A stretch of 64,000 nucleotides of DNA from a phage. Below the pieces are notes generated by a model. The model was given only the letters and a program-made list of their open reading frames with translations, was not told the DNA's origin and did no database searches. Shown piece after piece: positions 13,281 through 58,791 of the stretch. Each line of letters starts with the position of its first letter. Position 1 is the first letter of the stretch. Location: assembly GCA_014435945.1 (NCBI GenBank), contig GCA_014435945.1_4088.1; one strand, written 5' to 3'. The position numbers and the translations under genes were made by a program.

Positions 13281-13282
13281 GT

Positions 13283-14491: not shown

Positions 14492-14492
14492 T

Positions 14493-14687: not shown

Positions 14688-14700
14688 GGTTGAGGCACAC

Positions 14701-15560: not shown

Positions 15561-15570
15561 GGAAAGTACA

Positions 15571-16125: not shown

Positions 16126-16134
16126 AGGGTGCTG

Positions 16135-18157: not shown

Positions 18158-18158
18158 T

Positions 18159-19066: not shown

Positions 19067-19068
19067 TA

Positions 19069-23207: not shown

Positions 23208-23212
23208 ATGCC

Positions 23213-23900: not shown

Positions 23901-23907
23901 GGTTAGT

Positions 23908-24441: not shown

Positions 24442-24467
24442 CACCCTCCAAATCTTTGTGATATAAT
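24438..24467 (+). promoter_or_regulatory. sigma70-like promoter
   Basis: TTGACA 24438-24443, 18-nt spacer, TG-extended TATAAT 24462-24467. Confidence 0.55.
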
Positions 24468-24500
24468 CTCTTTATATTAATTGTAAAGGGTTATATCACA

Positions 24501-25817: not shown

Positions 25818-26214
25818 AATTATGCAACGATGCATTGTTGACCAACATGGAATATATGGATATAGTTTAAGTGCAGCTATTGACAAAAACAAAACAACCT
25901 ATGTAAGCTATAATTCAGTACTTGGATTTGATATATTCATTGATGCCAACAATAAAATCAAACAAGCCAAGGATGTATCTATAATGACCCCTGATGAGCT
26001 ATTTCAGTACAGCTTAGTTCTGCCCACCTGTATTGATTTACAACGCCTAGGAGCTATACAGAAGGTTTTACGCGAACATAAAGTACAACCAAATAAAATT
26101 ACACACATTCCAGAAACATTCTACAAACCCATAGAAGTAGAAACACCTGATTATATGTTAAGTGATGATGAGTTCTACAAGAAACACTTCCCTGGTAAAG
26201 TTTGGAGAGACTAA
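25801..26214 (+). CDS. hypothetical protein, paralog family 2
   Basis: motif TPDELFQYSLVLPT. Confidence 0.65.
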   Translation: MFEMIKIMQRCIVDQHGIYGYSLSAAIDKNKTTYVSYNSVLGFDIFIDANNKIKQAKDVSIMTPDELFQYSLVLPTCIDLQRLGAIQKVLREHKVQPNKITHIPETFYKPIEVETPDYMLSDDEFYKKHFPGKVWRD

Positions 26215-26696
26215 TGAACCGAAAGTACAGAGAAACTATGAAGTTCGCTAAGGAGTGTTTAGAGACAGTTGATTTCATTTTCGATAACAAAGACTCATTG
26301 GGTCGCCACTTCGTAATTACAAAGAAAGAAGATAAGAGATACAAATGTCAACGATTAGGATACAGTATTGAGTTCTCCTTAATGATTGATGGCATGATAA
26401 ACTCCTTATATGAATGTGGTAAGACTGATTACATTTCATTTAGATCTTGGAGTGAACGTGTCATGTTCTTGACTCCAAATGGAGTTGTATATCCTTTTCT
26501 TGATGATTTATCAGAAGAAAGTTACTTTCAAAATAGTTTAATTTACACAGAAAAAGAACTCAAAATGCTATTCATTATGTCGTACTTTAAAAAGTACTGC
26601 AATTTTAAATCATTATCTTTTGAGATCTCTGCAATGAAAGTATTCATTAAAAATGTAAAAGAATTAAAGAGGATTTACGATGTACATAGAAAATGA
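26202..26696 (+). CDS. hypothetical protein, paralog family 2
   Basis: motif SEESYFQNSLIYTEKE; MSYFKK resembles the WYFK subgroup. Confidence 0.65.
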   Translation: MERLMNRKYRETMKFAKECLETVDFIFDNKDSLGRHFVITKKEDKRYKCQRLGYSIEFSLMIDGMINSLYECGKTDYISFRSWSERVMFLTPNGVVYPFLDDLSEESYFQNSLIYTEKELKMLFIMSYFKKYCNFKSLSFEISAMKVFIKNVKELKRIYDVHRK

Positions 26697-40386: not shown

Positions 40387-40911
40387 ATGTCGAAGAAGGA
40401 TGCTTCGAAGAAAAAACAATCAGTACATTTCAGTACTGGAAAAGATAACTGGACTACTCCAAAGGATTTCTTTGAAGATTTGGATGAACTCTGGGAATTT
40501 ACACTAGATGCAGCGTGTGTCAAAGAAACTGCATTGTGTGATAAGTTCTTTACACCAGAAGACAATTCACTTGAACAGGACTGGGGAAACAATATCGTGT
40601 GGCTCAACCCACCGTACAGTGATTTGAAAACGTGGTTATCTAAGGCAGTTGATGCATATAACAAAGGTGCTACAGTACTGATTCTCGTACCATCAAGAAC
40701 TGATACTATAGCCTTTCAGGATTATGCTGCGAAAGTTTGTGATTGTATTTGTTTTATAAAAGGTCGCTTAAAGTTCGGTATCCCTGAAGAACCAGATAAA
40801 AAGACGGACAGTGCTCCATTCCCTAGTTGTTTAATAGTACTGGATAAGTATTTGACTCCAGCTAAAATCAACTATCTTAAATCTATTGGTCAGGTGATGA
40901 AGAACATATGA
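40387..40911 (+). CDS. DNA N6-adenine methyltransferase (phage Dam family)
   Basis: AAGGA RBS; motif region WTTPKDFFEDL...FTLDAA...VWLNPPYSDL...ILVPSRTDT matches the phage N6A-methylase family with its NPPY catalytic motif. Confidence 0.8.
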   Translation: MSKKDASKKKQSVHFSTGKDNWTTPKDFFEDLDELWEFTLDAACVKETALCDKFFTPEDNSLEQDWGNNIVWLNPPYSDLKTWLSKAVDAYNKGATVLILVPSRTDTIAFQDYAAKVCDCICFIKGRLKFGIPEEPDKKTDSAPFPSCLIVLDKYLTPAKINYLKSIGQVMKNI

Positions 40912-41441
40912 AAGAAACATGCGTAGTGACATTCGGAAGAATTAACCCTGTACATCGAGGTCATGGTTTAGTGTTTGAAAAAGCTCAAGCACTACAAGAA
41001 CAGTACAATGCTGATTTGAAAATATTCCTTAGTACCAGTACTGATGCCGTCAAAAACCCATTACCTCCTGAACTGAAAATGTACTATACAGAAGGATTTT
41101 ACCCATCTGTACAAGAAAATATCTATACAGAAGATAATCTGTTTGATATAATGAGAGAACTGGATGGAAAGTACTTAGATGTTCTTTTCATATGTGGTTC
41201 AGACAGACTTGAACCATTCCAAAAAACGCTTGACACGTACAATGGGAAGTTATATAATTTTTGTTCAATCAAGGCAGTTCAAGCTGGAATTGATCGAAAT
41301 GTAAGTCGCTACAGTTCCACACAGATGCGTGAGTTTGCCAAGAATGAAGATTTTAATAGCTTCAGTACTTTTCTACCTGGTAATGATGATGCACTGAAAA
41401 CTAAACTATTTGAAGATGTAATAAAATACATGAGGAAATAA
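40908..41441 (+). CDS. nucleotidyltransferase (HxGH cytidylyltransferase superfamily; NMN adenylyltransferase-like?)
   Basis: N-terminal TFGRINPVHRGH is the (T/H)xGH signature; ATGA overlap with methyltransferase gene. Confidence 0.6.
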   Translation: MKETCVVTFGRINPVHRGHGLVFEKAQALQEQYNADLKIFLSTSTDAVKNPLPPELKMYYTEGFYPSVQENIYTEDNLFDIMRELDGKYLDVLFICGSDRLEPFQKTLDTYNGKLYNFCSIKAVQAGIDRNVSRYSSTQMREFAKNEDFNSFSTFLPGNDDALKTKLFEDVIKYMRK

Positions 41442-42661: not shown

Positions 42662-42931
42662 ATGAATTACAAACATATACAATTCACTTATATGGAATTA
42701 TTTAAATTACACCATAATCACAGAAGTACTAACACAATTAATAAAAATGCGTTTACTCATAAATTATGGTCAAATTACCTAGAAGAATTACGTGAGTATT
42801 TTATTGATACTGAAATTTTCATTAATGGAAAAAAACGAAAGATACTTAGAGTCGATAGTTTTGGTGGTAGATTAGTACTTTCATATAAATTTGATAACGA
42901 CTTATTCTCTGTTGATTTGGTGAATATATGA
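42662..42931 (+). CDS. hypothetical protein, tandem paralog family 3 (QFTYK motif)
   Basis: N-terminus MNYKHIQFTYMELFKL. Confidence 0.6.
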   Translation: MNYKHIQFTYMELFKLHHNHRSTNTINKNAFTHKLWSNYLEELREYFIDTEIFINGKKRKILRVDSFGGRLVLSYKFDNDLFSVDLVNI

Positions 42932-43188
42932 ATTATAAAGATTTCCAATTAACATTCAAGTGCATTCGTGACCTAGCAAATAAAAATAATAGTATATTTT
43001 TAGAAGATACATGTATTGAAATGATTAATATTGTGCGTGAGAGGATTAAAGAAAAATTCAGTACTGTAATTATCAACAACGATCATGCAGAATTTTCAGA
43101 TATAATCATTAAGCTCGATGGTAAAGTAGAGGTACAGTTCTACACTGATTTTGGATTTACGAGTGTTCCTCTGGAGATATTCCCTTGA
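42928..43188 (+). CDS. hypothetical protein, tandem paralog family 3
   Basis: N-terminus MNYKDFQLTFKCIRDL. Confidence 0.6.
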   Translation: MNYKDFQLTFKCIRDLANKNNSIFLEDTCIEMINIVRERIKEKFSTVIINNDHAEFSDIIIKLDGKVEVQFYTDFGFTSVPLEIFP

Positions 43189-43496
43189 AATTAAATTTGA
43201 ATGATGTTCAATTCACGTATAAAAATATATATGGTTTGTATGACATGTATCTTTTTAGTGGGAAGATTGGTGAACATGTCGAATCAAAAGAATCACCATT
43301 TATTAATAATTACTATGATTACTTAGATTCTATTGCTGAATATATAAAAAAGAATTACAGTACTTACACTGATGGAGATGATATATTCGAATATTCAGGT
43401 GTAAAATCTTATCAAGGTATTATCCATGTAGAATTTCTTGAAAAAACTGATAGGGAATTTATGGAGATTAAAGTTTTGAAGTTAACGGACCTATAA
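43185..43496 (+). CDS. hypothetical protein, tandem paralog family 3
   Basis: N-terminus MKLNLNDVQFTYKNIYGLY. Confidence 0.6.
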   Translation: MKLNLNDVQFTYKNIYGLYDMYLFSGKIGEHVESKESPFINNYYDYLDSIAEYIKKNYSTYTDGDDIFEYSGVKSYQGIIHVEFLEKTDREFMEIKVLKLTDL

Positions 43497-43506
43497 GAGT
43501 TGACAT

Positions 43507-43818
43507 ATGAATATTAATGATATACAATTCACATACAAATTTTTGTATATCCAATACGCTACGGTTGATGCTGGAGAATATCTCTACGGTGAAATCTATC
43601 GTTCGGTATGGATAAAGTTTTTGGATGAATTACATGAATATTACCATGATTTGTGTATAGTTCGTGATAATAAAATATACAAATTCCGCGATATTGTTAG
43701 TCATAGCGGTAAGCTACGATTGGAATTAAGTACTGATAGTGATGTTGATTGGATTGGTGTAAATTTACTGGAGTTGGAGAATGAAAAACAACTTAAAGGA
43801 AATACAAGTATTTTATAA
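43507..43818 (+). CDS. hypothetical protein, tandem paralog family 3
   Basis: N-terminus MNINDIQFTYKFLYIQY. Confidence 0.6.
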   Translation: MNINDIQFTYKFLYIQYATVDAGEYLYGEIYRSVWIKFLDELHEYYHDLCIVRDNKIYKFRDIVSHSGKLRLELSTDSDVDWIGVNLLELENEKQLKGNTSIL

Positions 43819-44065
43819 ATTCTTATACTTGTCATATGTAAAAGATGAGTACTATGAAAGTGTGTATTATTTTTTATGGCAACATTACCGTACTATAGTA
43901 AGAGATTTATATATAGGAAAATCTATCATATCCAATGGTGAAAAATGTATATGTACGGATGTCGTGAGTTATAATGGTTCTTTAACACTGTGTTTCAGAT
44001 GCGTTAATAATAGTGGGTCATTTTCATTAAACATATATCAGTTAGAAGGAATAAATTTTGAATAA
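43781..44065 (+). CDS. hypothetical protein, tandem paralog family 3
   Basis: N-terminus MKNNLKEIQVFYKFLYLSY. Confidence 0.55.
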   Translation: MKNNLKEIQVFYKFLYLSYVKDEYYESVYYFLWQHYRTIVRDLYIGKSIISNGEKCICTDVVSYNGSLTLCFRCVNNSGSFSLNIYQLEGINFE

Positions 44066-47943: not shown

Positions 47944-48207
47944 ATGAATATCCAAGATAGATTGCAATTATTGCACACACTTGAAGAAGCTGCTTTTGAA
48001 CTTGTTAATAAAATTGCACAAGAACTCCCAAAAGGAACCAAAGTTCGTGTTCGTGAAATGGATTATTTAACGGGAAAAATTGATGAAAAAGTTCTAACAG
48101 TGATCAAAGTAACATACTATGAATCAGAGTTATCAATTCAATGTAATTCAGATAATGGTTACGTTTCCTACTATGGTACAGATGTAGATATAGAGGTAAT
48201 AAAATGA
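47944..48207 (+). CDS. hypothetical small protein (loose family 4)
   Basis: ORF-track ORF 47899 trimmed to ATG after upstream stop with GGTGG RBS. Confidence 0.55.
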   Translation: MNIQDRLQLLHTLEEAAFELVNKIAQELPKGTKVRVREMDYLTGKIDEKVLTVIKVTYYESELSIQCNSDNGYVSYYGTDVDIEVIK

Positions 48208-49346
48208 CCCTTTTACAAATATATGAAGATTTAATGCACTTATGTAATACCCGTGAGGCTTTCTTTTATGTGGATCATAAAAGTCCTGCTGGTGGAACAT
48301 ATCGTGTATTCAGTTATCGTCTAGCATCATATACCGATTTCATGCAACCCAATGCATTAGAAACCCGTGGTTCTATGTGGGAAATTGATGAAGACGGTGA
48401 TATGATTCGTTGTGCTGCTCGTACTATGAAAAAGTTCTTCAATGCTTACGAAAATCCTGCTACAATGTTCCCTGCTGATACCTCATTCGATGACATTGCA
48501 GTAGTGATGCCTAAGTTGGATGGTTCAGTAATCAGTACTTACCGTGATAATGATGGTGTAATTCGTTGTAAATCACATACTGCATTGTATTCAGATCATG
48601 CGATTAACAGTACTCGTCTTCTCAATGAGAACCAAAATTTGTATCAATACATTGACGAAGCAGACCGTTTGGGCTATACTGTTAATCTGGAGTATACAAG
48701 TCCAGAGTACCGTATTGTATTACCATACCAGGTTGAACAATTATTTGTACTAAACGTTCGCCATCGCAAGAGTGGTGAACTATTATGTGGTTCTGCATTA
48801 CGTAATAAGTTCCCATGCCTTGCACAGTACAGTACTAACATGACAGGTAAAGATATTCATTACACTTTCCCTGCTCGTGCTACATTCAAAGAAAGTGTTG
48901 AAGAAGTTAAGAAAATGCTTGACATTGAAGGTTTTGTGTGCATCCTAAATAATGGTACAATGTGCAAAATCAAAACCGACTGGTATTGTTCTTTGCATTT
49001 AACGAAAGACAGTATTATAATCGATTCCCATTTATATGAAGCTGTATTAAATGGTTCGAGTGATGATTTAAAACAGTTGTTCAGTACTGACGAATATGCT
49101 ACCCAAAAGATATTAAGAATGGAACAACTAGTCTTTTCGTGCTATAATGCTTTACAAGATGAAGTTGAAAGCTTCGTCAAGGAACACAAGCACTTGGAGC
49201 GAAAGGAATTCGCTAAGAAGGTTCAGGAGTGTTTAACTAATGAACTGAATCGTCAGGGCTTGGCCTTTGCAATGTACAACAATAAGAAAGTCGATTACAA
49301 AGAGACTCTTATTAAGTACATGAAAATTGTACTAAAGGATTTTTAG
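48204..49346 (+). CDS. rnlA: RNA ligase 1 (T4 RnlA-like)
   Basis: N-terminal region ...CNTREAFFYVDHKSPAGGTYRVFSYRLASYTDFMQPNALETRGSMWEID closely parallels T4 RnlA; nucleotidyltransferase motif I KLDGS. Confidence 0.85.
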   Translation: MTLLQIYEDLMHLCNTREAFFYVDHKSPAGGTYRVFSYRLASYTDFMQPNALETRGSMWEIDEDGDMIRCAARTMKKFFNAYENPATMFPADTSFDDIAVVMPKLDGSVISTYRDNDGVIRCKSHTALYSDHAINSTRLLNENQNLYQYIDEADRLGYTVNLEYTSPEYRIVLPYQVEQLFVLNVRHRKSGELLCGSALRNKFPCLAQYSTNMTGKDIHYTFPARATFKESVEEVKKMLDIEGFVCILNNGTMCKIKTDWYCSLHLTKDSIIIDSHLYEAVLNGSSDDLKQLFSTDEYATQKILRMEQLVFSCYNALQDEVESFVKEHKHLERKEFAKKVQECLTNELNRQGLAFAMYNNKKVDYKETLIKYMKIVLKDF

Positions 49347-49375
49347 TACTATCTAGCCTAGCACAAGGAGAAGTG

Positions 49376-49630
49376 ATGGCTAAACCTAAGTATAAAAATG
49401 ACGGTTCCCTTTCTCCGACAGAATTCAGGAAAATACAAGAAGAAATCGATGAATTACAGCACAAACGCTCTAAGAAAGGTGTGAAGATTAGTAAGAAACG
49501 AATCGAGAATACTTTCGGGTGTAGTAGTACTGAATACAAGAAGAAAAGGAAACCAAAAGGTGTTAAGCCGAGAATACATGATGTAACTCGCTATACATCG
49601 AAACGTGAAAATAAATTCGACCCACTATAA
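49376..49630 (+). CDS. small lysine-rich basic protein, possible nucleic-acid-binding
   Basis: AAGGAG RBS 7 nt upstream of ATG 49376 (ORF-track start 49373 is GTG); K/R-rich. Confidence 0.55.
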   Translation: MAKPKYKNDGSLSPTEFRKIQEEIDELQHKRSKKGVKISKKRIENTFGCSSTEYKKKRKPKGVKPRIHDVTRYTSKRENKFDPL

Positions 49631-49639
49631 GGAGTTCAT

Positions 49640-49876
49640 ATGAAAGTTGAAGTTCAGCATAGTATTGTTCAGGATATGTCAGTAGTTAAATTTCTTTCCT
49701 TGAAAGATTATTTCAGATGTATCAAGTTCCTAGAAGAATCTCAATTACAGTGGACCCCATTAAAGTACAGTTCATCCAATGATACTGCTAGTATTCGTTG
49801 TGATGAATCTGTACTTGTGAAAATCTCCAAGCGATTTGGGATTGGGAAATACAATGATAAACAATGCACAAAGTAA
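49640..49876 (+). CDS. hypothetical protein (78 aa)
   Basis: ORF with AGGAG RBS. Confidence 0.55.
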   Translation: MKVEVQHSIVQDMSVVKFLSLKDYFRCIKFLEESQLQWTPLKYSSSNDTASIRCDESVLVKISKRFGIGKYNDKQCTK

Positions 49877-50165
49877 TTTACTATATATAAAGTCAGTAGA
49901 AGCTGAAATTAAAAATTCAGTACAAACTATCGTCGATGAAATGATTGACAAATACAAGAGCAATCTTATTGGAAAGAAAGTCAGATGTTGGGATTACACA
50001 TTCAAACACTGGTACGATTCCGAGATTGTGAAAGTTGATGTGAATACTGATAGTAATGGTCTAATTAATGGTATTGCGTATATTGGTGTTTTAATACGCA
50101 AGGGAACACCACAGGAATGGCTCACATATCATAATATAGAGCATGTTAAATTTTTAGAGGATTAA
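49854..50165 (+). CDS. hypothetical small protein (loose family 4)
   Basis: start ambiguous (49836 or 49854). Confidence 0.45.
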   Translation: MINNAQSNLLYIKSVEAEIKNSVQTIVDEMIDKYKSNLIGKKVRCWDYTFKHWYDSEIVKVDVNTDSNGLINGIAYIGVLIRKGTPQEWLTYHNIEHVKFLED

Positions 50166-50168
50166 AGG

Positions 50169-51101
50169 ATGCCAACTATCACACTAACAGTTGGATTGCC
50201 AGGGTGTGGTAAAACTACATGGGCAGTGCAAGAGATTAAAAAAGCCAAATCCAAGACTATCAACATCAACCGTGATGATATTCGTGAATCTATGGCTGGG
50301 TCACATGATGCTTACAAATTCAACGATGCTAATGAGCAGTACGTAACTAATTTACAGTTCAGTGCAGCAAATTCAGCCGCAGAGAATGGTTGGAACATCA
50401 TCATATCCGATACGAACCTTAAACAACATTTCCGTAATCTATGGAAAGTATGGGCTACAGATAATGGTTATGATTACAAAGAAAAGAATTTCTATGATGA
50501 TTTTGTACCTAATGAAGACCGTGGTGCAGATGTTCATGAATTCTTTAAGATTAAAGAGTTCGTAAAACTTTGTAAGAAATATAACCTCCAGCGTGAGCGT
50601 TCAGTACAAGATAATATCATTGACACTATGGCAGATACGTACTATTATAGTAAGGCATTACACATTGGTTACTATGGTAATTCACGCGAAGCTGCTATTA
50701 TCGTTGATATCGACGGTACTCTTGCTCATAAATGGGGACGTAACCCGTTCGATGAAAGTACTGTTCTCCAGGACACACCAGACGAAGAAGTTATTTTGTC
50801 TATTATCGCAGAAGCAGTTTTTCATAAACGCAAGATTATCGTCATGAGTGGGCGTACTGAAGGGTGTCGTGCTGATACCGAACAGTGGCTTAAGAATTGG
50901 GGTATTCCTTACGATGCATTGTTTATGCGAGACATTGATGATAAACGTCCTGATGATGTTGTCAAATTCGACCTGTACATGAAAAATGTGGTTGATCATT
51001 ACGATGTTAAAAAGGTATATGATGACCGCAATCAAGTTGTGTTCATGTGGCGTAAGTTACTTGGGTTGAAAGTTTTTCAAGTGGCTGAAGGAAATTTCTA
51101 A
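50169..51101 (+). CDS. pseT: polynucleotide 5'-kinase/3'-phosphatase (T4 PseT-like)
   Basis: P-loop GLPGCGKTT in N-terminal kinase domain; HAD phosphatase motif DIDGTLA; C-terminus VFQVAEGNF parallels T4 Pnk. Confidence 0.85.
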   Translation: MPTITLTVGLPGCGKTTWAVQEIKKAKSKTININRDDIRESMAGSHDAYKFNDANEQYVTNLQFSAANSAAENGWNIIISDTNLKQHFRNLWKVWATDNGYDYKEKNFYDDFVPNEDRGADVHEFFKIKEFVKLCKKYNLQRERSVQDNIIDTMADTYYYSKALHIGYYGNSREAAIIVDIDGTLAHKWGRNPFDESTVLQDTPDEEVILSIIAEAVFHKRKIIVMSGRTEGCRADTEQWLKNWGIPYDALFMRDIDDKRPDDVVKFDLYMKNVVDHYDVKKVYDDRNQVVFMWRKLLGLKVFQVAEGNF

Positions 51102-51104
51102 TAC

Positions 51105-51137
51105 AAAAGGGATCATATATTGGTCCCTTTTTCTTTT
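51105..51137 (+). terminator. rho-independent terminator
   Basis: AAAGGGATC-loop-GGTCCCTTT hairpin then T-rich run. Confidence 0.55.
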
Positions 51138-51168
51138 AAGGTACATTATAGTGAATGTAACAACACAG

Positions 51169-51327
51169 ATGTTATTACGAAAAGACTACTTAGAAAATAT
51201 AGAACGATACTATAGATTGTCTTTGTATGAAAATAAGCATAAAAATTATAGTTTTGATAAACTACTAAATTCTAGTACTGAAGATTATCTATTTTCATCA
51301 ATGTTTTATGTGAGAGGATTATTGTAA
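51169..51327 (+). CDS. hypothetical small protein (52 aa), below the ORF-track cutoff
   Basis: open frame from ATG 51169 (or GTG 51151) to TAA overlapping next ATG; no clear RBS. Confidence 0.3.
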   Translation: MLLRKDYLENIERYYRLSLYENKHKNYSFDKLLNSSTEDYLFSSMFYVRGLL

Positions 51328-51587
51328 TGGATAAATTTCACACAGATATATCACAGATAGGTAATCTTATCAATAGTCTAATTACTGATTTAGAAGAAAA
51401 GTACTTAGGACGAAATGTATACTTAGAAATGTATGAAACATATGGTGTTATTGATATGATTTATTACAGTGCATTGAAGTATGAAATACGTTTAACTGTA
51501 TGTTTATATGAAAAAGGTACATTTAAAAGAAGTACTGCAATTCGCCAAGTTGGAGTTGATGACATGGAATTATACGAGGAACACTGA
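51327..51587 (+). CDS. hypothetical small protein (loose family 4)
   Basis: ORF; EEKYLGRNVY pattern. Confidence 0.55.
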   Translation: MDKFHTDISQIGNLINSLITDLEEKYLGRNVYLEMYETYGVIDMIYYSALKYEIRLTVCLYEKGTFKRSTAIRQVGVDDMELYEEH

Positions 51588-51838
51588 TGTTTGAGCAGGA
51601 CTTAGAGCTATTCAAAAGTTATGTCGAGTACTTAGTTACATTAGAAAAAGAGCTAACGACAAAGTACAAAGGTATTCGTGTTCTGTGCTGGTATGATGAT
51701 TCGGATTATAAACGTGAACTCACCATTGACCGAATCTATTTCATCGACGGTGTATTGAATGTGCATGGTGTAAATGATTTTGGACATTCATATACTTATT
51801 CGAATAATGCTAAATTCAAGAGGATTGACAATGAATGA
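51587..51838 (+). CDS. hypothetical small protein (loose family 4)
   Basis: ORF; TTKYKGIRVLCW pattern. Confidence 0.55.
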   Translation: MFEQDLELFKSYVEYLVTLEKELTTKYKGIRVLCWYDDSDYKRELTIDRIYFIDGVLNVHGVNDFGHSYTYSNNAKFKRIDNE

Positions 51839-52133
51839 GTACTATCAAAATTTATTCAATTACATAAAACTAATAGATGATCTTGCTTTCGATTTTCTTA
51901 GTACTGATAAAGTTGGTGAGCCTTTATATTATGATTGTATTGGAACACTTTGTTCAGATGAAAAGAATATATTAGAAAATAAATTACCGTCATCACAGTG
52001 CTTAATCAATGGTTCCAAAGCAGTAATAACTGATGTTAATTTTTATAAATCTCTTAATACTATTTGTTATGTATTCAATAACACTGTGTTTAAACATGTA
52101 ACAAGTAATATTAAATCTGTGAGGTTCTTATGA
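51831..52133 (+). CDS. hypothetical protein
   Basis: ORF-track ORF 51774 trimmed to ATG overlapping upstream stop. Confidence 0.5.
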   Translation: MNEYYQNLFNYIKLIDDLAFDFLSTDKVGEPLYYDCIGTLCSDEKNILENKLPSSQCLINGSKAVITDVNFYKSLNTICYVFNNTVFKHVTSNIKSVRFL

Positions 52134-52426
52134 ATTTAAAACTTTTGTTAGAACAGGTACATTTATTGTATAGCTGTGCTGATGGTTCTGATAAGGAGTA
52201 TAGTGAAGTTTATTTAGAACTGTTTAGAACGGAAATACACATAATTAGAAGATACTTAATTGATAATAAAACTGAAGTAAAAGTTAGATACCATAATGGT
52301 ACTTTAAAGAATGGTATAATTATTGGATTGATAGTTACACGAATGTCTAGTAATATTAAAGTTGCAGTTAGATTAATGACTGATGATGGTGTCTACACCA
52401 TAGAAGTAAGTGAGATTATATATTAA
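52130..52426 (+). CDS. hypothetical small protein
   Basis: ATGA overlap. Confidence 0.55.
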   Translation: MNLKLLLEQVHLLYSCADGSDKEYSEVYLELFRTEIHIIRRYLIDNKTEVKVRYHNGTLKNGIIIGLIVTRMSSNIKVAVRLMTDDGVYTIEVSEIIY

Positions 52427-52732
52427 ATGGATATACAAACATTCAATAAACTAAAGTACTATGACAATGGTTTTGCTATTATCATTGATGAACTAGATGG
52501 AATACCATATGAGTATCATAATGATGTAATGAAGATAGTAAAAAGTATTTGTAATGATTTAAAAACTATTTTCGAAAATGAATATGTATACGACTTAGGT
52601 ACAAACAATAAGAAACTATACATAAAGAAATTCTGTGGAACGCATTGTGGTCTGATGGTTGATTTAGGTTTAAGTGCTGACAACAATTTCGAAGCATGTA
52701 GTTTATATCTGGATGAAATGCGAATCTCATGA
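52427..52732 (+). CDS. hypothetical small protein
   Basis: ATG directly follows upstream TAA. Confidence 0.55.
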   Translation: MDIQTFNKLKYYDNGFAIIIDELDGIPYEYHNDVMKIVKSICNDLKTIFENEYVYDLGTNNKKLYIKKFCGTHCGLMVDLGLSADNNFEACSLYLDEMRIS

Positions 52733-52758
52733 GACATATCTTGATTCGGTGATATAAT
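52730..52758 (+). promoter_or_regulatory. sigma70-like promoter (TGAGACATA type)
   Basis: TGAGAC at about 52730, TG-extended TATAAT 52753-52758. Confidence 0.4.
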
Positions 52759-52789
52759 TTCATTACAACACTGACATGGAGTAGTTGTT

Positions 52790-53119
52790 GTGAATAACGA
52801 TTTTTTAAAAATGTGGGAAAAAACAATAGTAATTCTATCTAGTTCATTAATGCACATTATCAGTACTGATAATTCTTATAGTTCACATACATTTGATTTA
52901 ATATGTAATAACTATGTAAATGGTATATCAGATGAAATATGTCCATTCATTGCGTATTCACCGGATGGTATTGAAGAATTTAATATATGCAACATCAGTT
53001 GTGGTTTTGGTGATTGGCTTGTGTTAAATGATCGAGGTGGAATATGTTTATACATCGAAGATATTGGTAAATTTATATACAAAGGAGTAGAATATGTTAA
53101 CAATCGCAGCAGTTATTAG
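52790..53119 (+). CDS. hypothetical protein
   Basis: probable GTG start with GGAG RBS 8 nt upstream. Confidence 0.5.
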   Translation: MNNDFLKMWEKTIVILSSSLMHIISTDNSYSSHTFDLICNNYVNGISDEICPFIAYSPDGIEEFNICNISCGFGDWLVLNDRGGICLYIEDIGKFIYKGVEYVNNRSSY

Positions 53120-53690
53120 TGTACTTGGTGTAGTTATTGCAGGTATGCTTGCATACAATTACAATCGTAGTGTTATCGGCTATGTACTACTTAGTCTAGT
53201 ACTAACCCCAGTACTCACCATCGTTACTTTATTAGTTCTAGGTGAACGTAATATCAACTTCATGATTAATGATAAACGTGATCAGGTTACACCAGAACCT
53301 GAAAAAGTTATTCCTGAAGAACAAGAAGAACTTAAAGTTGAAGTTCAAATGCAAGTGAATGTTCACAATGCACTTGATGAAACTGATCCAAAAGTTAATG
53401 TTACTGTTGTTCCTGTCGTCAATGAAGTAAAGCCTAAAGCAGCACCGAAAAGTACTAAAGCACCAAAGAGCACCAAGACTACAAAGAAAGCTCGCTATAC
53501 TAAAGGGAAGAATAAAAACAAAGTCCAAGATGAACCACAACAAGGTACACACGACCATACTTCCCATATTATTACAGCAGCCACCACCGCAGCAATCGTA
53601 ACGCCATATATCTCTTCTGCTGATACTGGTTCATATGATAGCTCTAGCTGTGATTCAAGCTCTAGTTCAAGTTCCGGTAGCTGTGATTAA
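53094..53690 (+). CDS. membrane protein with two TM helices, K/P-rich repeat region and Ser-rich C-terminus
   Basis: hydrophobic N-terminal segments; APKSTKAPKSTKTTKK repeats; tail SSSCDSSSSSSSGSCD. Confidence 0.6.
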   Translation: MLTIAAVISVLGVVIAGMLAYNYNRSVIGYVLLSLVLTPVLTIVTLLVLGERNINFMINDKRDQVTPEPEKVIPEEQEELKVEVQMQVNVHNALDETDPKVNVTVVPVVNEVKPKAAPKSTKAPKSTKTTKKARYTKGKNKNKVQDEPQQGTHDHTSHIITAATTAAIVTPYISSADTGSYDSSSCDSSSSSSSGSCD

Positions 53691-53692
53691 CA

Positions 53693-54025
53693 ATGAAACA
53701 TCTTGCACAATATAATCAGTACTTGATTGCGTTGCATCAAATGAAAGATGATTTCTATAAAAGTGCAGAAACAGAACTCGTCGGTAAGATAGTAAAATTT
53801 ACTGACGAGTACATCAACCGATATGCGGAAATGGACGATGATCCAGAGTATGAATCATACTACCAGTACATAAATTCCAATACAAGAATGAGAATTATTG
53901 AAATTATGAAATACGGTATACGTTTAATTGCACAAGTAGAATACATCAATCACGATGCAATTGATGCCGCTGCCTTTGGTGATGAAATAAGTTTAGAATA
54001 TCTTATTCAAGTTGATGAGGAATAA
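53693..54025 (+). CDS. hypothetical small protein (loose family 4)
   Basis: ORF 2 nt after upstream stop. Confidence 0.55.
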   Translation: MKHLAQYNQYLIALHQMKDDFYKSAETELVGKIVKFTDEYINRYAEMDDDPEYESYYQYINSNTRMRIIEIMKYGIRLIAQVEYINHDAIDAAAFGDEISLEYLIQVDEE

Positions 54026-54027
54026 TA

Positions 54028-54243
54028 ATGACTACCTTTTTTGCAATATATGGATTTGTTGCGTTTTGCTCATTTATATGTAACTTTCTAGTACTGAATT
54101 GGAAATGTTTCAAAGATGAAATCATAACTGCAATGAGTCTACAATCAGCAGCACTAATGGCTATAATTTGGCCTGTAACTATGGTGTATCTTTTTATCTC
54201 AATAACAAAAGATATCATATCCCACTTCAAGAGAAAGAAATAA
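54028..54243 (+). CDS. small membrane protein with two TM helices and basic C-terminus (holin-like topology)
   Basis: two hydrophobic segments; C-terminal HFKRKK. Confidence 0.5.
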   Translation: MTTFFAIYGFVAFCSFICNFLVLNWKCFKDEIITAMSLQSAALMAIIWPVTMVYLFISITKDIISHFKRKK

Positions 54244-54494
54244 TGTTCAACACCGACTATTCACATTTGCGATATCTTATGTCTTTGGCTGATGATTTTA
54301 TTAATGATTTGAAGCCGAAGTATATTGGACAAGAAGTATCTTTGATAAACTCAAGGGGTTATGGGAAGTACATTATCGCTGATATGTATATTAGCGGTGG
54401 TGAATGGCGTTTCAAAGTTAATACGTATCTTAAAGATGGTTCTTTTGCAGGTACACAAGTTACAAAACACACTAACATTATATGGTTGAAATAA
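54243..54494 (+). CDS. hypothetical small protein (loose family 4)
   Basis: ORF-track ORF 54168 trimmed to TAATG overlap; LKPKYIGQEVSL pattern. Confidence 0.5.
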   Translation: MFNTDYSHLRYLMSLADDFINDLKPKYIGQEVSLINSRGYGKYIIADMYISGGEWRFKVNTYLKDGSFAGTQVTKHTNIIWLK

Positions 54495-54496
54495 TA

Positions 54497-55240
54497 ATGA
54501 AACATTTTTTGGAAATTACAGTACCGGATGATAAAGATTTATATATCGTTGGTGATTTACACGGCAATGGAAAACTGTGGGATGCTACCAAGAAAGAATT
54601 TGGTATCACCAATAATGACTATGTTTTTTGTGTAGGTGATGTTATTGACCGTGGTGACCAGAATTCCAAACTACTATTTGAATTCCTTTTCGGTGAAAAC
54701 CGTTTTATGATTGCTGGGAACCACGAGATCATGTGTGTTGATTCTGAAACTCACCGTGACTGGCATCACTGTTGGGTACAAAATGGTGGAGATAAGTTCA
54801 TTGATGAAGTTGGTGAGACAGGTATACAGTTCTTCCGTCAGTACTTAAAGGATCTCCCTATGATTATCCAAATCAATCACCGAGGATTGAAGATTGGTCT
54901 AGTTCATGCTGGTGTTCCATTGGAATATACCACATGGGAACGTTTCGTTAGTGGGACAAAATCACTTAGTGCTGATATAATTGAGAAGTGCTTGTGGGAC
55001 CGTGATACATTCGACTACTGCAAGAAAAATAACACATATTACGTCCCTAGACTTGATGGCATCCATTGCGTCTTTAGTGGTCATACCGCAGTATCCGACC
55101 CACTCATCTACGGTAATCGTATCTGGATTGATAGTCAGTTTTTAACTGGTGATTTGACTCTTGCAACTCCCCAAAGTGGCGGGATGAGATACTTACGTAA
55201 AGAAAAAGATGAGTATTCATTTAACCGCTTCAAAAGGTAA
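54497..55240 (+). CDS. Ser/Thr protein phosphatase (PPP-family metallophosphoesterase, lambda-PPase-like)
   Basis: GDLHG, GDVIDRG and GNHE metallophosphatase motifs in canonical order; start at ATG just after upstream TAA. Confidence 0.75.
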   Translation: MKHFLEITVPDDKDLYIVGDLHGNGKLWDATKKEFGITNNDYVFCVGDVIDRGDQNSKLLFEFLFGENRFMIAGNHEIMCVDSETHRDWHHCWVQNGGDKFIDEVGETGIQFFRQYLKDLPMIIQINHRGLKIGLVHAGVPLEYTTWERFVSGTKSLSADIIEKCLWDRDTFDYCKKNNTYYVPRLDGIHCVFSGHTAVSDPLIYGNRIWIDSQFLTGDLTLATPQSGGMRYLRKEKDEYSFNRFKR

Positions 55241-55244
55241 TAAT

Positions 55245-55514
55245 ATGCATGATGATATTAAAAAATCATTGTATGATTTATATATTATGAAAAAAACCAT
55301 CAATTCTATACTTGCCGACCAGATCAAACAGGTACGTAACTTCCTATCAAAAAAACTTATTGGTGCAGAGGTTAAATTCCATTACAAAAAAAATGTCGTG
55401 GTTGATGGTGTTATTAGAAGAGTAGTTACAATTTCAGACCAAACAATATATGTTGAAGTTGAATATGATGGTAAATTATCACAATTAAGTACTGAAGATT
55501 TAACATTTTTATAA
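55245..55514 (+). CDS. hypothetical small protein (loose family 4)
   Basis: ORF-track ORF 55209 trimmed to ATG after upstream stop. Confidence 0.5.
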   Translation: MHDDIKKSLYDLYIMKKTINSILADQIKQVRNFLSKKLIGAEVKFHYKKNVVVDGVIRRVVTISDQTIYVEVEYDGKLSQLSTEDLTFL

Positions 55515-55524
55515 GGAAATAGAA

Positions 55525-55752
55525 ATGAAAGTAATTCAAGTTATGGTAGAAAAATACCAAACTGAAGATGGCCGTATTTTTGATTCAGCTAAACAAGCTG
55601 AACATCATGAACGTATTATTTCTGGTGCACGTAAAGTATGCCCTACATGTAATGGAACACAACAAGTACCATCTGAAGACTATCGCAGTTATTATGCTTG
55701 TCCACATTGTGATGGTAAAGGGTTTGTAGAAAAACAAGAGGTATGGAAATGA
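55525..55752 (+). CDS. small zinc-finger protein (DnaJ-type CxxCxGxG-like)
   Basis: CPTCNGTQ and CPHCDGKG motifs. Confidence 0.6.
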   Translation: MKVIQVMVEKYQTEDGRIFDSAKQAEHHERIISGARKVCPTCNGTQQVPSEDYRSYYACPHCDGKGFVEKQEVWK

Positions 55753-56162
55753 AATTATATTGCTTAACAAACATGTACTGCCAAGGTGTACAAGCTGGAA
55801 TTCAAGCATTTCATGCTGGCGTAAAACTAATTAAAGAATATGAAGGTACTGCTTTCAGTACTATTATTGATGAATGGTATTATGACCACGAAACTATTGT
55901 AGTACTAAATGCTGGCGGTCATGATAAGTTAAATTCTTATTATGATGACCTTTGTAAGCAGGGAAAAGTGCCATTCGCTAAATTCAATGAAGCCGGATTA
56001 AATGATGCAACTACATGTGTAGCAGTACTGTGTACATCTGAAATGGTTGAAGACATGTCTGTTATGCGTATGAATCTTCCTGCTGGGGATCAACTAATGC
56101 AAGTAAAATATGGTGCATTGTTTAACACATTAAAAGCAATTAGTACAATGAGGACTGTTTGA
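55743..56162 (+). CDS. hypothetical protein (about 139 aa)
   Basis: ORF overlapping upstream stop; start 55743 or 55749. Confidence 0.55.
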   Translation: MEMKLYCLTNMYCQGVQAGIQAFHAGVKLIKEYEGTAFSTIIDEWYYDHETIVVLNAGGHDKLNSYYDDLCKQGKVPFAKFNEAGLNDATTCVAVLCTSEMVEDMSVMRMNLPAGDQLMQVKYGALFNTLKAISTMRTV

Positions 56163-57361
56163 TGGATTTTCCAGAGAAGTTATTTGTTGCTCGTTCGTAT
56201 GTAAATCATAACCAAGTTACTGGTTACATTATAGATGCCACAAAATCGCACACAAAAGCGTTTGAGACTAAAAAAGAAAAGGCCGAGTACTGGGCTAAGA
56301 AAAACAATCTACCTTCACTATGGATTGATAATGTGCCTACAATTGGGTTTTCTGTGGTACATAAGCTCACTGTTCATGCTCGTGAAACATACTTCACCAT
56401 ACGTCACCCTGAAGGTTTCGAGTTCTTGGTGAGTGCTAAAAACATGAACGACCTTATCATCAACAATGATATTGTTAAGGGTGTATTTGTTGAACCTATG
56501 TTCTTCAATAATAGTTTAGAACTAATTAACGGTAAAACTAAAACCTTTGCTAAATTGGTTGAGAAGGAAAATAAGAAAGAACAACAAAAAGAAGTTGTTT
56601 CTAAATTGAAAGTGGGTGATGGTTTTAGACACAATAAAGAAGATTACTATTATTGTGGTAAAGTAAATGCTATTTGTATCAAGAAAACTAAAGAGTTTTC
56701 ATTTTCTGATAAGAGTTCCAAGTATCACTTAGTATATAATACTACTCGTGGGACATATGCTCTTAATGCTCGTCTTGAAACTTATGCATTAGAACCAAGT
56801 GCTGCACTGAATGTGAAAACTACAGTTCAAGATGAAATTGTTAAAGCTAATGCATTTTGGCAAAATATCCAACGAAATCGCCATAACCCATTATGTGAAA
56901 GCAATGTACCAGTACTGATAAGTGATAAGTCGTTTAAAGCACAAGATTTGAAAGTAAAGTACGAAGAAATCAATCCTGATGATATAATGAGTAATGGACG
57001 ATTCAACGAGAACGTACCGTTCATGTGTAAAGTTGATGAACAGGCATATCGTGTTTTCTTTGGTGTAAAGAACAATACAACCAGAAGTTATTATGGTCGT
57101 AATGGTGATTATATTCTTCAATACACTGATGTATTTGAACGATACAGTGCGTATCCAGTTGAAATTGATGCTAATGGCATTATGACAATGGATGTGGATT
57201 TAAACGAACATGTATCATTTGGTACATGGAATGGATACCGTTCTCCTTTCTTCCCACCAACAGAAAATAAAACATCATCAACTCGTTACTACCAAGAAAA
57301 ACCTTGTCACGTCCAGCTATCACTAAGTAATACACTTTACATTGGAAAGTATTATCTATAA
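56162..57361 (+). CDS. hypothetical protein (about 400 aa)
   Basis: long ORF; ATG overlaps upstream TGA (ORF-track start 56159 is TTG). Confidence 0.65.
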   Translation: MDFPEKLFVARSYVNHNQVTGYIIDATKSHTKAFETKKEKAEYWAKKNNLPSLWIDNVPTIGFSVVHKLTVHARETYFTIRHPEGFEFLVSAKNMNDLIINNDIVKGVFVEPMFFNNSLELINGKTKTFAKLVEKENKKEQQKEVVSKLKVGDGFRHNKEDYYYCGKVNAICIKKTKEFSFSDKSSKYHLVYNTTRGTYALNARLETYALEPSAALNVKTTVQDEIVKANAFWQNIQRNRHNPLCESNVPVLISDKSFKAQDLKVKYEEINPDDIMSNGRFNENVPFMCKVDEQAYRVFFGVKNNTTRSYYGRNGDYILQYTDVFERYSAYPVEIDANGIMTMDVDLNEHVSFGTWNGYRSPFFPPTENKTSSTRYYQEKPCHVQLSLSNTLYIGKYYL

Positions 57362-57372
57362 GGGAATATATA

Positions 57373-58791
57373 ATGAGCATTTTAGCAATTCTTGAAAGCA
57401 TTAAAAATACTAGCAGTACTCTGGGTAAAAAAGCTATCCTTGAACAAAACAAAGATAACCAAACATTACAAAAAGTACTGAAATATACACTAGACCCTTC
57501 AATTGTAAGTGGGTATAAAAAGCTACCACAAGCTGATGATGTATATCAACATATGACATTAGACGAAGCTATTGATAAGCTAGAATGCATTTACAAACGT
57601 GGTGTGACCGGAAATGCTGGACGTGACTTCATTGCTTCAGTACTGGGTTCAGTATCAGAAGATGACCAAGAAGTTCTTCGTAAAATGCTCACGAAGAACC
57701 TTGATTGTGGTATCCAAGAAAAGAACTGCAATGATGTGTTCGGGAAAGGTTTCATCAAAGACGAACCATACATGCGTTGTTCGTTGATTGACAAAAAGAC
57801 TGCAAAGAACATTAACTTCAAAGATTATGGTTATGCTATATCAGAAGTGAAAATGGATGGTCAGTACTTGAACCACGTTGTCATTAATGGTTCATTAACT
57901 TCTACATCCCGTAATGGTAAACTATACGACTTCCTGGGTTGTCGTGATGGTGAGATGGCAGGTCTTGCTCACATCATCCAAAGTAAAGATGAACGTTTTA
58001 GTAGTGGTGTAGTCTTTATGGGTGAAGGTGTAGTACTGGACAATGATGGAGAAACCATTCTCCCACGCACTACTGGTAACGGTATTATCCAGAAAGCTGG
58101 TAAAGATAGCATCAGTCAGAATGAAGCAATGCGTACTGTATTCGTTCTATGGGATGTTGTTCCATATGATGCATTTTGTGAAGGTGTATGGGATGTAAAA
58201 CGTAAAGAACGCCGTGAGATCTTAGTAGATGCAATTAACGAACTCGGTAGTGATTTTGTTCGTATGGTTGGATTCCGTAAAGTTCTAAACATCAAAGAAG
58301 CATTTGAGTACAATAGTGAACTAATGAACGAAGGTGAAGAGGGTTCAGTACTGAAATGTGAAGATGGTATCTGGAAATCTCACACTTCTCCTAAGCAGTT
58401 GAAAATGAAACTTAAAATGCAATTGGACTTGCGTATTGTTGGTTTCAATGAAGGTGAAGGTAAGCGTAAAGGTAGCCTTGGTTCTTTACAACTGGAAAGT
58501 GCTTGTGGTACATTGAAAGTTAATGTAGGTACTGGAATTAAAGAGAAAGACGCAGAATGGACGTTTAAAACCATTTGGGAAAGAATGCAAGAACTCATTG
58601 GTCAAGTAGTGACAGTAGAGTGCAATGATATTGTATTCGATAAGCGTACTGGTGAGCCATCACTATTTTTACCAGTGTTTATTGAATTTAGATTTGACAA
58701 AAACACCTGTGACGACTATACTCGTATCTTAGAAATTCGTGATAGTGCTGTTGAGGTGTTCTCTAATAGTATTCTTGAATCACTCGGTTAA
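57373..58791 (+). CDS. ATP-dependent DNA ligase (T4 gp30-like)
   Basis: N-terminus MSILAILESIKNTSSTLGKKAILEQNKDNQ parallels T4 DNA ligase; adenylation motif KMDGQ; 472 aa. Confidence 0.85.
   Translation: MSILAILESIKNTSSTLGKKAILEQNKDNQTLQKVLKYTLDPSIVSGYKKLPQADDVYQHMTLDEAIDKLECIYKRGVTGNAGRDFIASVLGSVSEDDQEVLRKMLTKNLDCGIQEKNCNDVFGKGFIKDEPYMRCSLIDKKTAKNINFKDYGYAISEVKMDGQYLNHVVINGSLTSTSRNGKLYDFLGCRDGEMAGLAHIIQSKDERFSSGVVFMGEGVVLDNDGETILPRTTGNGIIQKAGKDSISQNEAMRTVFVLWDVVPYDAFCEGVWDVKRKERREILVDAINELGSDFVRMVGFRKVLNIKEAFEYNSELMNEGEEGSVLKCEDGIWKSHTSPKQLKMKLKMQLDLRIVGFNEGEGKRKGSLGSLQLESACGTLKVNVGTGIKEKDAEWTFKTIWERMQELIGQVVTVECNDIVFDKRTGEPSLFLPVFIEFRFDKNTCDDYTRILEIRDSAVEVFSNSILESLG

Follow-up and report, generated by a model that had tools for sequence, protein, structure and literature searches.

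The window, the 64,000-nt stretch of phage DNA analyzed here, carries a run of plus-strand genes that includes a predicted RNA ligase 1 (Rnl1, encoded by rnlA), a predicted polynucleotide kinase-phosphatase (Pnkp, encoded by pseT), and, further downstream, a predicted DNA ligase (Table 1). The whole interval shared 99.0% nucleotide identity with Escherichia phage vB_Ec-M-J, an Asteriusvirus. Identity to vB_Ec-M-J, Turkey3, EC.P1, Ecwhy_1, and fEgEco12 was 97-99%, and to PBECO4 about 88%. A total of 37 related records matched the interval, and in most of those listed all three enzymes are annotated there. We therefore assign the window, from its nucleotide identity, to a known Escherichia coli jumbo phage of the genus Asteriusvirus, within the RaK2-like group that comprises Asteriusvirus (PBECO4, 121Q, phAPEC6), Alcyoneusvirus RaK2, Eneladusvirus, Mimasvirus, and GAP32. 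RaK2 and the other RaK2-like genera have the same conserved backbone as the window, with no substantial difference from it; what varies is confined to the lineage-specific small open reading frames (ORFs) between backbone genes. No tRNA genes were found in the 64,000 nt of the window.

Table 1. Predicted features of the rnlA-pseT region and the DNA ligase module, in window coordinates.
Feature	Coordinates	Strand	Basis or remark
RNA ligase 1, T4 RnlA/gp63 family, 380 aa	48204..49346	+	Pfam, NCBIfam, PDB structure match, residue audit
Basic 84-aa protein, directly 3' of rnlA	49376..49630	+	ATG at 49376 after AAGGAG; PHROG 15306, no named family
78-aa protein upstream of pseT	49640..49876	+	PHROG 14730, no named family
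Lineage-specific 103-aa ORF directly 5' of pseT	49854..50165	+	Comparison with relatives
Polynucleotide 5'-kinase/3'-phosphatase, T4 PseT/Pnkp family, 310 aa	50169..51101	+	Pfam, PDB structure match, residues
Terminator-like hairpin, 11-bp stem then T-run	51105..51131	+	4 nt past pseT stop codon
Lambda-phosphatase-like (NinI-like) binuclear metallophosphoesterase, about 247-252 aa	54482..55240	+	1g5b match
75-aa CxxC zinc-ribbon protein	55525..55752	+	DnaJ-central/Anti-TRAP-like, under Pfam cut-offs
Pth2-fold protein, 137-139 aa	55743..56162	+	Pfam PTH2, AlphaFold, Foldseek; start probably 55749
399/400-aa protein, no assigned function	56162..57361	+	Always directly 5' of DNA ligase in RaK2-like phages
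ATP-dependent DNA ligase, T4 gp30 type, 472 aa	57373..58791	+	Pfam, PDB structure match, PHROG, motifs
Second calcineurin-like metallophosphoesterase, 263 aa	58811..59602	+	PHROG 1649; directly 3' of DNA ligase

The rnlA product matched Pfam RNA_lig_T4_1 (E 1e-14) and, over residues 268-379, T4_Rnl1_C (E 2.6e-16; profile positions 1-113 of 122), so that the C-terminal domain of T4 Rnl1 is retained. It scored 289.6 bits against the NCBIfam equivalog TIGR02308, 'T4 RnlA family RNA ligase' (cut-off 242.25), and aligned to the T4 Rnl1 structure 2c5u with an E of 1e-56. The adenylylation lysine is K104, within a motif I (K104-L-D106-G107) that aligns to T4 K99-E-D-G and is invariant in 120 sequences. 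Residues reportedly essential in T4 Rnl1 (R54, K75, F77, E159, E227, G228, K240, and K242) correspond to R55, K77, F79, E163, E242, G243, K255, and K257, all of which are conserved; together with K104, D106, G107, and Y261, they are invariant or nearly so across the 120 homologues. K119 of motif Ia is also said to be essential in T4, but its position is occupied by H125 here. Among the 120 homologues this position varied (H in 47, K in 41, Q in 18, and N in 14), while the preceding T4 K117-S118, here K123-S124, was invariant. The histidine is thus a clade-wide trait rather than a lesion specific to this phage. The gene is predicted to encode a T4 RnlA-family RNA ligase 1 that has retained its catalytic motifs.

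In T4, Rnl1 has an additional non-enzymatic role in tail-fiber attachment, and its C-terminal domain is reported from Shuman-lab work to confer tRNA specificity. PHROG 562 and many phage records accordingly carry the name 'RNA ligase and tail fiber protein attachment catalyst', an annotation transferred from T4. This raises the alternative that the homologue is mainly morphogenetic, like T4 gp63, with a secondary or vestigial ligase activity. The (near) invariance of the nucleotidyl-transferase residues among the 120 homologues instead points to selection on catalysis, and rnlA lies in an early-type region beside pseT, away from structural genes. RaK2-like tail fibers are also not known to share the architecture of T4 fibers. 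We consider a mainly structural role very improbable.

The pseT product matched Pfam AAA_33 and HAD_PNKP (E 2e-43) and, over its full length, the T4 Pnkp structure 1ltq (E 5e-39). The N-terminal kinase domain has a P-loop of the GxxGxGK(S/T) form (G9-LPGCG-K15-T16) and retains D36 and R39, equivalent to T4 D35 and R38. The C-terminal domain has the phosphatase motif DxDxT (D180-I-D182-G-T184), and S227, R229, K266, and D285/D286, as well as R191 and D262, are likewise conserved. T4 R126, which we take to be the kinase 'lid' arginine, aligned to Q141, with an adjacent arginine, R142, conserved in four of four RaK2-like sequences; the alignment is uncertain here because the kinase domain of this clade carries, close by, an insertion of about 20 aa (roughly residues 108-128) that T4 Pnkp lacks. 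S227, K266, and D286 map onto T4 S211, K258, and D278, which with DxDxT support an acylphosphatase mechanism in the T4 enzyme (PMC3592404). These matches argue for a bifunctional polynucleotide kinase-phosphatase with intact catalytic motifs.

Both enzymes therefore share family, domain architecture, and catalytic residues with T4 RnlA (gp63, Rnl1) and PseT (Pnkp), at 37-38% identity, apart from the histidine at K119 and the changes around R126. The two T4 enzymes make up a tRNA repair pathway that counters the PrrC anticodon nuclease. The gene order is also that of T4, with rnlA 5' of pseT and a short run of small genes in the gap. T4 has alc, pseT.3, pseT.2, and pseT.1 there; the three intervening ORFs here (84, 78, and 103 aa) are unrelated to them, and when the T4 region was searched by tblastn with the small ORFs, no matches were returned. 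Homologues of the 84-aa protein occupy the same position in RaK2, Yersinia phage fHe-Yen9-04, Xanthomonas phage XbC2, Pectobacterium phage CBB, Salmonella phage Munch, and two metagenomic relatives, at 40-56% identity. The 78-aa protein was detected by tblastn in 71 RaK2-like phage records, and 30 columns are invariant in an alignment of seven sequences. Its cross-genus identity (59-69%) at least matches that of the enzymes (Rnl1 47-64%, Pnkp 40-64%). The 103-aa ORF, by comparison, is not conserved outside Asteriusvirus: it has no counterpart in RaK2 or in relatives L008 and L010 and is unrelated to the 'middle' small ORF of other genera. Diverged relatives have no counterparts of about 19 further small ORFs of the region. 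The sequence-only reading had proposed the small genes around the enzymes as candidate counter-defense factors; that idea keeps some force for the two ORFs between rnlA and pseT that are strongly conserved in place, while nearly all the others are lineage-specific filler.

The order Rnl1, basic protein, 78-aa protein, Pnkp is kept in RaK2, Eneladusvirus, Mimasvirus, Munch, and the metagenomic relatives. A hairpin followed by a T-run lies after pseT in seven of the eight lineages examined, although the sequences differ, and the Munch record has a terminator annotated at the equivalent place. The hairpin probably marks the end of an rnlA-pseT transcription unit.

The DNA ligase lies beyond this point, 6.3 kb downstream of pseT and past about 16 ORFs that include the 252-aa lambda-type phosphatase, the Pth2-fold protein, and the 400-aa protein. 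Its product matched Pfam DNA_ligase_A_M, T4 DNA ligase 6dt1 (E 5e-44), and PHROG 114 (E 1e-118), with a 122-aa N-terminal DNA-binding domain that matched 5wfy (E 2e-13). The adenylylation lysine is K160 (K-M-D-G), and motifs I (K160xDG), III (E218), IIIa (F257xxWD261), IV (E323GxxxK328), V (K344xK346), and VI (R440xDK443) are invariant in comparison with T4 and four relatives. At 33% identity, it shares with T4 gp30 the six motifs and the three-part architecture (N-terminal DNA-binding, nucleotidyltransferase, and OB domains), but lacks the T4 insertion of about 23 aa after motif III; its upstream neighbors are not homologous to T4 30.1, 30.2, and 30.3. By sequence it is a T4-type ATP-dependent DNA ligase with its catalytic motifs kept. 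The three enzyme identities in the sequence-only reading were thus borne out by Pfam and PDB structure matches, with E-values well outside the range of chance, each at exactly the ORF proposed and on the plus strand. Its description of these genes as having nothing but small ORFs between them is right for rnlA and pseT but fails for the DNA ligase, given the distance and the larger genes in between.

The neighbors of the ligase are themselves conserved. The lambda-type phosphatase (1g5b, lambda Ser/Thr phosphatase, E 4e-16) is kept in RaK2, L006, and L010, the second metallophosphoesterase keeps its place 3' of the ligase gene in three relatives (L006, L008, and L010), and the zinc-ribbon gene is retained beside the 400-aa gene in L006. 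The Pth2-fold protein, conserved in RaK2, L006, and L008 and annotated 'peptidyl-tRNA hydrolase' in phage ph0011, scored only marginally against Pfam PTH2 (23.2 bits, cut-off 23) and far below the NCBIfam Pth2 equivalog cut-off (18.3 versus 126 bits), and PDB sequence searches did not reach Pth2. Its AlphaFold model (pLDDT 86.5) resembled Pth2: the best 13 Foldseek PDB matches were either Pth2 structures or structural-genomics proteins from archaea that share its fold, all with probability 1.00, and TM-scores, normalized to the target, reached 0.74. The protein is thus modeled to adopt the Pth2 alpha/beta fold of the archaeal and eukaryal enzymes despite marginal sequence similarity, with an additional C-terminal helix in the phage protein. 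The DNA ligase belongs outside the RNA repair unit, in a conserved module of its own whose genes run in the order zinc-ribbon, Pth2-fold, 400-aa, DNA ligase, metallophosphoesterase, and ClpP.

This arrangement bears on a second alternative, in which the chief partners of Pnkp are the DNA ligase and the two metallophosphoesterases. Together they would process DNA ends and seal nicks for replication or repair, in a neighborhood devoted to DNA rather than RNA metabolism. The four genes are syntenic across genera and lie less than 6 kb apart in L010, and T4 Pnkp is active on DNA ends in vitro. However, the hairpin stands between pseT and the downstream genes in the seven lineages noted above, pseT is packed tightly with rnlA rather than with the ligase, and in L006 the 10 kb upstream of the ligase module contain neither rnlA nor pseT. 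A DNA-directed set is, in our view, unlikely. Another relative, L009, has Rnl1 without Pnkp within 10 kb; because the module and Rnl1 each occur without the full pair, we take rnlA-pseT to be dispensable or mobile in the wider group.

The gene identities proved right, and neither the KxDG lysine (K104 in Rnl1, K160 in the DNA ligase) nor the DxDGT aspartates of Pnkp, whose loss the sequence-only reading had named as grounds for rejection, is missing. Heal-and-seal RNA repair is therefore the reading that best fits the rnlA-pseT pair. In the scheme we favor, drawn from T4, the Pnkp phosphatase domain would remove the cyclic or 3' phosphate (D180 as nucleophile, D182 as acid-base), its P-loop kinase domain would phosphorylate the 5'-OH (K15, D36, R39), and Rnl1, self-adenylylated on K104, would activate the 5'-phosphate and seal the break, steered to tRNA by its C-terminal domain. 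The DNA ligase would seal nicks in phage replication and repair. We put the probability at about 70% that the window is a portion of the early-type, all-plus-strand Asteriusvirus region carrying a T4-type heal-and-seal cassette, with the DNA ligase in a separate module. Weighing against this reading are the histidine at the T4 K119 position, the glutamine aligned to T4 R126, the absence of tRNA genes from the window, the relatives without the full pair (L006 and L009), and the tail-fiber role of T4 Rnl1. The comparisons show homology, intact catalytic residues, conserved gene order, and a terminator-like structure, and from these we infer enzymatic activity, a tRNA substrate, and a counter-defense role for the pair.

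A broader version of this reading, to which we give slightly less than even odds, is that rnlA-pseT came with the RaK2-like backbone as an all-purpose kit for mending damaged RNA and is no specific answer to a PrrC-like anticodon nuclease. [quoted passage not shown] The retained Rnl1 C-terminal domain, associated with tRNA specificity, argues that tRNA would be the preferred substrate. On the other side, different ligases serve different RNase effectors according to a jumbo-phage review (PMC7824862), and many tRNA-targeting systems are now known (PMC12409363 and PMC12330615).

T4-type RNA repair genes in these phages were already known: vB_Ec-M-J carries the same gene names, an anti-Prr role has been proposed for the close relative phAPEC6 (PMC7247149), and a review of jumbo phages covers the pairing of their ATP-grasp RNA ligases with PNK-HAD enzymes and Pth2 (PMC7824862). 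Our additions are the hairpin-ended rnlA-pseT cassette, its two position-conserved small ORFs, and the separate DNA ligase module. By comparison with the T4 Prr system, it is the phage side alone, in the form of genes, that is seen here, with no host nuclease, trigger, or tRNA target visible in the window, and by analogy with T4 the phage may meet a tRNA-targeting defense. Because homologues of Rnl1 are present in 1,672 phage records from many host genera, a spread well beyond that of any one nuclease, the pair reflects inheritance within the lineage no less than it specifically signals such a defense.

The interval at 48204-58791 matched 37 phage records, all with genomes of roughly 310-386 kb, and the matching phages belong to Asteriusvirus, within the RaK2-like jumbo myoviruses. 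Identity over the full length of the interval was 99.0% to Escherichia phage vB_Ec-M-J, with 97-98% to Turkey3, EC.P1, Ecwhy_1, fEgEco12, WPEC5 and CMSTMSU, and ~88% to PBECO4 and its relatives. Across its 64 kb, the window carries ~150 closely packed ORFs on the plus strand and hardly any genes on the minus strand, and no tRNA genes were found within it. A promoter scan yielded 74 sites compared to 80.8 expected from shuffled sequence, and without an excess no promoter was called.

A sequence-only reading had assigned T4-type RNA ligase 1 (Rnl1), polynucleotide kinase/phosphatase (Pnkp) and DNA ligase to three ORFs in this interval. All three were present exactly where it placed them, and family profiles together with matches to T4 structures showed the identifications to be right. 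Rnl1 matched Pfam RNA_lig_T4_1 and T4_Rnl1_C, PHROG 562 (E 4e-108) and T4 Rnl1 crystal structures (E 1e-56); at 289.6 bits it cleared the cut-off of 242 for the curated NCBIfam equivalog TIGR02308 ('T4 RnlA family RNA ligase'). Pnkp combines an N-terminal P-loop kinase (AAA_33) with a C-terminal HAD_PNKP domain (E 2e-43), and aligned end to end with T4 Pnkp (1ltq, E 5e-39). The DNA ligase matched T4 DNA ligase (6dt1, E 5e-44) and PHROG 114 (E 1e-118); the match to T4 extended to the N-terminal domain, which has a structure of its own (5wfy).

Features of the window and of two metagenomic relatives (L008, L009).
Feature	Position	Strand	Size
27-member tandem paralogue array	1181-7877, plus 21879-22070	+	~65-94 aa
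15-member paralogue family (within 7323-26696)	10122-26696		~146-198 aa
10-member paralogue family	7323-8822, 16865-17975, 19975-20289, 23213-23900, 25455-25817		~103-137 aa
Methyltransferase/cytidylyltransferase-like pair	40387-41441
Four-member paralogue family	42662-44065
rnlA (Rnl1)	48204-49346	+	380 aa
84-aa basic protein	49376-49630		84 aa
78-aa protein	49640-49876		78 aa
pseT (Pnkp)	50169-51101	+	310 aa
Paralogue pair of small ORFs	51327-51587, 54168-54494
198-aa ORF	53094-53690		198 aa
CxxC protein	55525-55752		75 aa
Pth2-fold protein	55743-56162		139 aa
400-aa protein	56162-57361		~400 aa
DNA ligase	57373-58791	+	472 aa
Four tandem ORFs (L008)	13947-18367		343-380 aa
Intein/TnpB entry (L009)	6656-9151, 19443-20561

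The catalytic residues were also retained: neither the Lys of KxDG nor the Asp of DxDGT, whose loss the sequence-only reading had set as grounds for refutation, was missing. Motif I of Rnl1 reads K104-L-D-G. Residues equivalent to T4 R54, K75, F77, D101, G102, E159, E227, G228, K240, K242 and Y246 were all present, and across 120 aligned homologues they were invariant or nearly so. The position of T4 K119 (motif Ia), which we take to be essential in T4 Rnl1, is occupied here by His125. Across the family this position is H in 47 sequences, K in 41, Q in 18 and N in 14, and the K-S dipeptide just before it is invariant; because the substitution is clade-wide, His125 is a variation of the family and does not point to decay.

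In the kinase domain of Pnkp, the P-loop (GLPGCGK15T), D36 and R39 were kept, while phosphatase residues D180, D182, T184, S227, K266 and D286 correspond to T4 D165, D167, T169, S211, K258 and D278, whose roles have been described (PMC3592404). T4 R126 aligned to Gln141, with the adjoining Arg142 kept in all RaK2-like sequences, although the local alignment is uncertain due to an insertion of ~20 residues in the kinase domain (aa ~108-128, FYDDFVPNEDRGADVHEFFKIKE). This insertion was kept in all RaK2-like homologues examined, whereas T4 Pnkp lacks it. When the DNA ligase was aligned to that of T4 and four relatives, none of motifs I (K160xDG), III, IIIa, IV, V and VI varied.

The description of these genes as separated only by small ORFs held for rnlA and pseT but not for the DNA ligase, which lies 6.3 kb further on, with about 16 ORFs, several of them not small, between it and pseT. 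Diverged relatives used for comparison were Klebsiella RaK2, Yersinia fHe-Yen9-04, Xanthomonas XbC2, Pectobacterium CBB, Salmonella Munch and four metagenomic contigs. Using tblastn, all 31 ORFs at 46-61 kb were searched against five loci, those of RaK2 and the four metagenomic contigs. The conserved backbone consisted of Rnl1, the 84-aa basic protein, the 78-aa protein and Pnkp, followed downstream by a lambda-type phosphatase (E 4e-16 to 1g5b), a CxxC zinc-ribbon protein, a Pth2-fold protein, a ~400-aa protein, the DNA ligase, a second metallophosphoesterase and ClpP. The suggestion that the flanking small genes are accessory factors therefore survives in part: the 84-aa and 78-aa proteins are conserved in the cassette, but the other small ORFs (~19) had no counterpart in the five relatives' loci.

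Within this cassette, the 84-aa protein was encoded directly 3' of rnlA in every lineage with the rnlA/pseT pair, with 40-56% identity by global alignment and motifs such as TPEEHRKI and RIYD..RY.RE. The 78-aa protein, encoded just upstream of pseT, was found by tblastn in 71 RaK2-like records and has 30 invariant alignment columns. Its identity across genera was 59-69%, at least as high as that of the enzymes, for which these phages gave 47-64% (Rnl1) and 40-64% (Pnkp). Neither small protein gave a significant match in Pfam, NCBIfam, PHROGs or a PDB profile search, or a tblastn match to the T4 rnlA-pseT region. A GC-rich hairpin followed by a T-run starts 4 nt past the pseT stop codon. Of 8 lineages, 7 have an equivalent structure after pseT, though its sequence differs, and a terminator is annotated at this position in the record of Salmonella phage Munch; on this basis the cassette appears to close a transcription unit. 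Collectively, rnlA, the two small genes and pseT are a defined, terminator-bounded unit whose synteny is conserved across RaK2-like genera.

The ligase module and the RNA repair pair are separable. In the metagenomic relative L006, the phosphatase, Pth2-like protein, zinc-ribbon, 400-aa protein, ligase, metallophosphoesterase and ClpP were all present, and rnlA and pseT were absent from the 10 kb upstream of the module. In L009, Rnl1 was present and Pnkp was absent within 10 kb. The DNA ligase lies outside the rnlA-pseT cassette and is unrelated to the RNA repair unit. L009 is a 341-kb metagenomic contig whose Rnl1 is 42% identical; its adenylosuccinate synthetase gene is split by an intein that contains a LAGLIDADG homing endonuclease, and a gene for TnpB (OrfB_IS605/Cas12f-like) is found 8 kb downstream of Rnl1.

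The 139-aa protein of the ligase module scored right at the Pfam PTH2 threshold and is annotated as peptidyl-tRNA hydrolase in one relative. The best 13 PDB matches to its model (pLDDT 86.5) were all Pth2 or archaeal structural-genomics proteins of the same fold. A sequence search found no link to solved Pth2 structures, to which the protein is putatively assigned by fold comparison. Its profile also gave weak sequence matches (E 0.02-0.03), in which aa 18-134 aligned within two large phage or PVC structural proteins of solved structure, namely 'inner-peripheral baseplate spoke gp32' (36za) and 'PVC protein gp65' (11fg); these matches may be due to chance or to a Pth2-like domain inside baseplate proteins.

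In RaK2-like phages the gene for the 400-aa protein always lies directly upstream of the DNA ligase; in the metagenomic relative L008, four tandem ORFs occupy its position. The family numbers 1,611 cluster representatives and has neither a Pfam domain nor a relative of solved structure. Pfam searches that included 10 distant members returned no match, and matches in BFVD were uncharacterised phage proteins only. We rejected the 400-aa and Pth2-like proteins as homologues of the T4 gene 30 neighbours, as BLASTP against gp30.2 and gp30.3, encoded upstream of that gene, gave no match. The 75-aa protein, whose L006 counterpart adjoins the 400-aa gene, has two CxxC pairs like the DnaJ central zinc-finger and Anti-TRAP, with a score below Pfam cut-offs (31.2 vs 32).

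Among the small ORFs of the interval, one paralogue pair was BLAST-detectable, and all-vs-all BLASTP and an HMM built from it found no further member at E<=0.01. A 'KYxGxxV' family picked by eye among 85-110-aa ORFs was discarded when the candidates ranked no better than random ORFs. The 198-aa ORF begins with a hydrophobic segment made up of two probable transmembrane helices, is rich in Lys and Pro in its middle part and ends in a Ser-rich tail (…SSSCDSSSSSSSGSCD); its name in fEgEco12, 'ribosome biogenesis protein Nop10', is implausible. Elsewhere in the window, the members of the 27-ORF array run head to tail and are all linked by BLASTP at E<=1e-3, and the 15- and 10-member families are interleaved. 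An N6-adenine DNA methyltransferase of the Dam family (E 2.5e-32) precedes an ORF weakly resembling cytidylyltransferases, and RaK2 carries the same pair upstream of rnlA.

The comparisons establish the family membership, catalytic residues, synteny and terminator-like structure; from these we infer the enzyme activity, substrate and biological role of the pair. Rnl1 would seal ends once healed, with a probable preference for tRNA anticodon loops since the C-terminal domain is retained, while the DNA ligase would close DNA nicks in replication and repair. A counter-defence role for rnlA and pseT, which the earlier analysis read as a sign of a tRNA-targeting host defence, is plausible; the host nuclease concerned may be PrrC or one of the many other systems now known to target tRNA (PMC10264068). 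The anti-Prr reading is already published for the Asteriusvirus relative phAPEC6 (PMC7247149), and a review covers RNA repair in jumbo phages. A comparative study of jumbo phages counts Rnl1, along with PNK-HAD enzymes and Pth2, among the components of RNA repair and ribosome rescue, with Pth2 proposed to free peptides from cleaved peptidyl-tRNA (PMC7824862). RNA ligase, polynucleotide kinase and DNA ligase are annotated in most matching records among the matches listed, and dozens of near-identical GenBank records carry these annotations; in RaK2 they date back to the original description of that phage. Homologues of Rnl1 are found in 1,672 phage records. Given these annotations and the published reading, the RNA repair finding is correct, ordinary and already known.

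The sole element we did not find described elsewhere is that the 84-aa and 78-aa proteins are conserved within the rnlA-pseT cassette. Of all the small ORFs in the interval, just these two have evolutionary support for a role tied to RNA repair. They might, for example, target tRNA or ribosomes, bridge Rnl1 and Pnkp, or inhibit the host nuclease. Combined with the Pth2-fold protein encoded nearby, they could provide an extended rescue of broken peptidyl-tRNA that T4 lacks. That they are dedicated accessory subunits of the RNA repair machine of the RaK2 lineage, acting jointly with the Pth2-fold protein, is a tentative proposal to which we give roughly one chance in four. Both proteins are reasonable targets when PrrC, RloC, PARIS, retrons and Schlafens are tested against jumbo phages.
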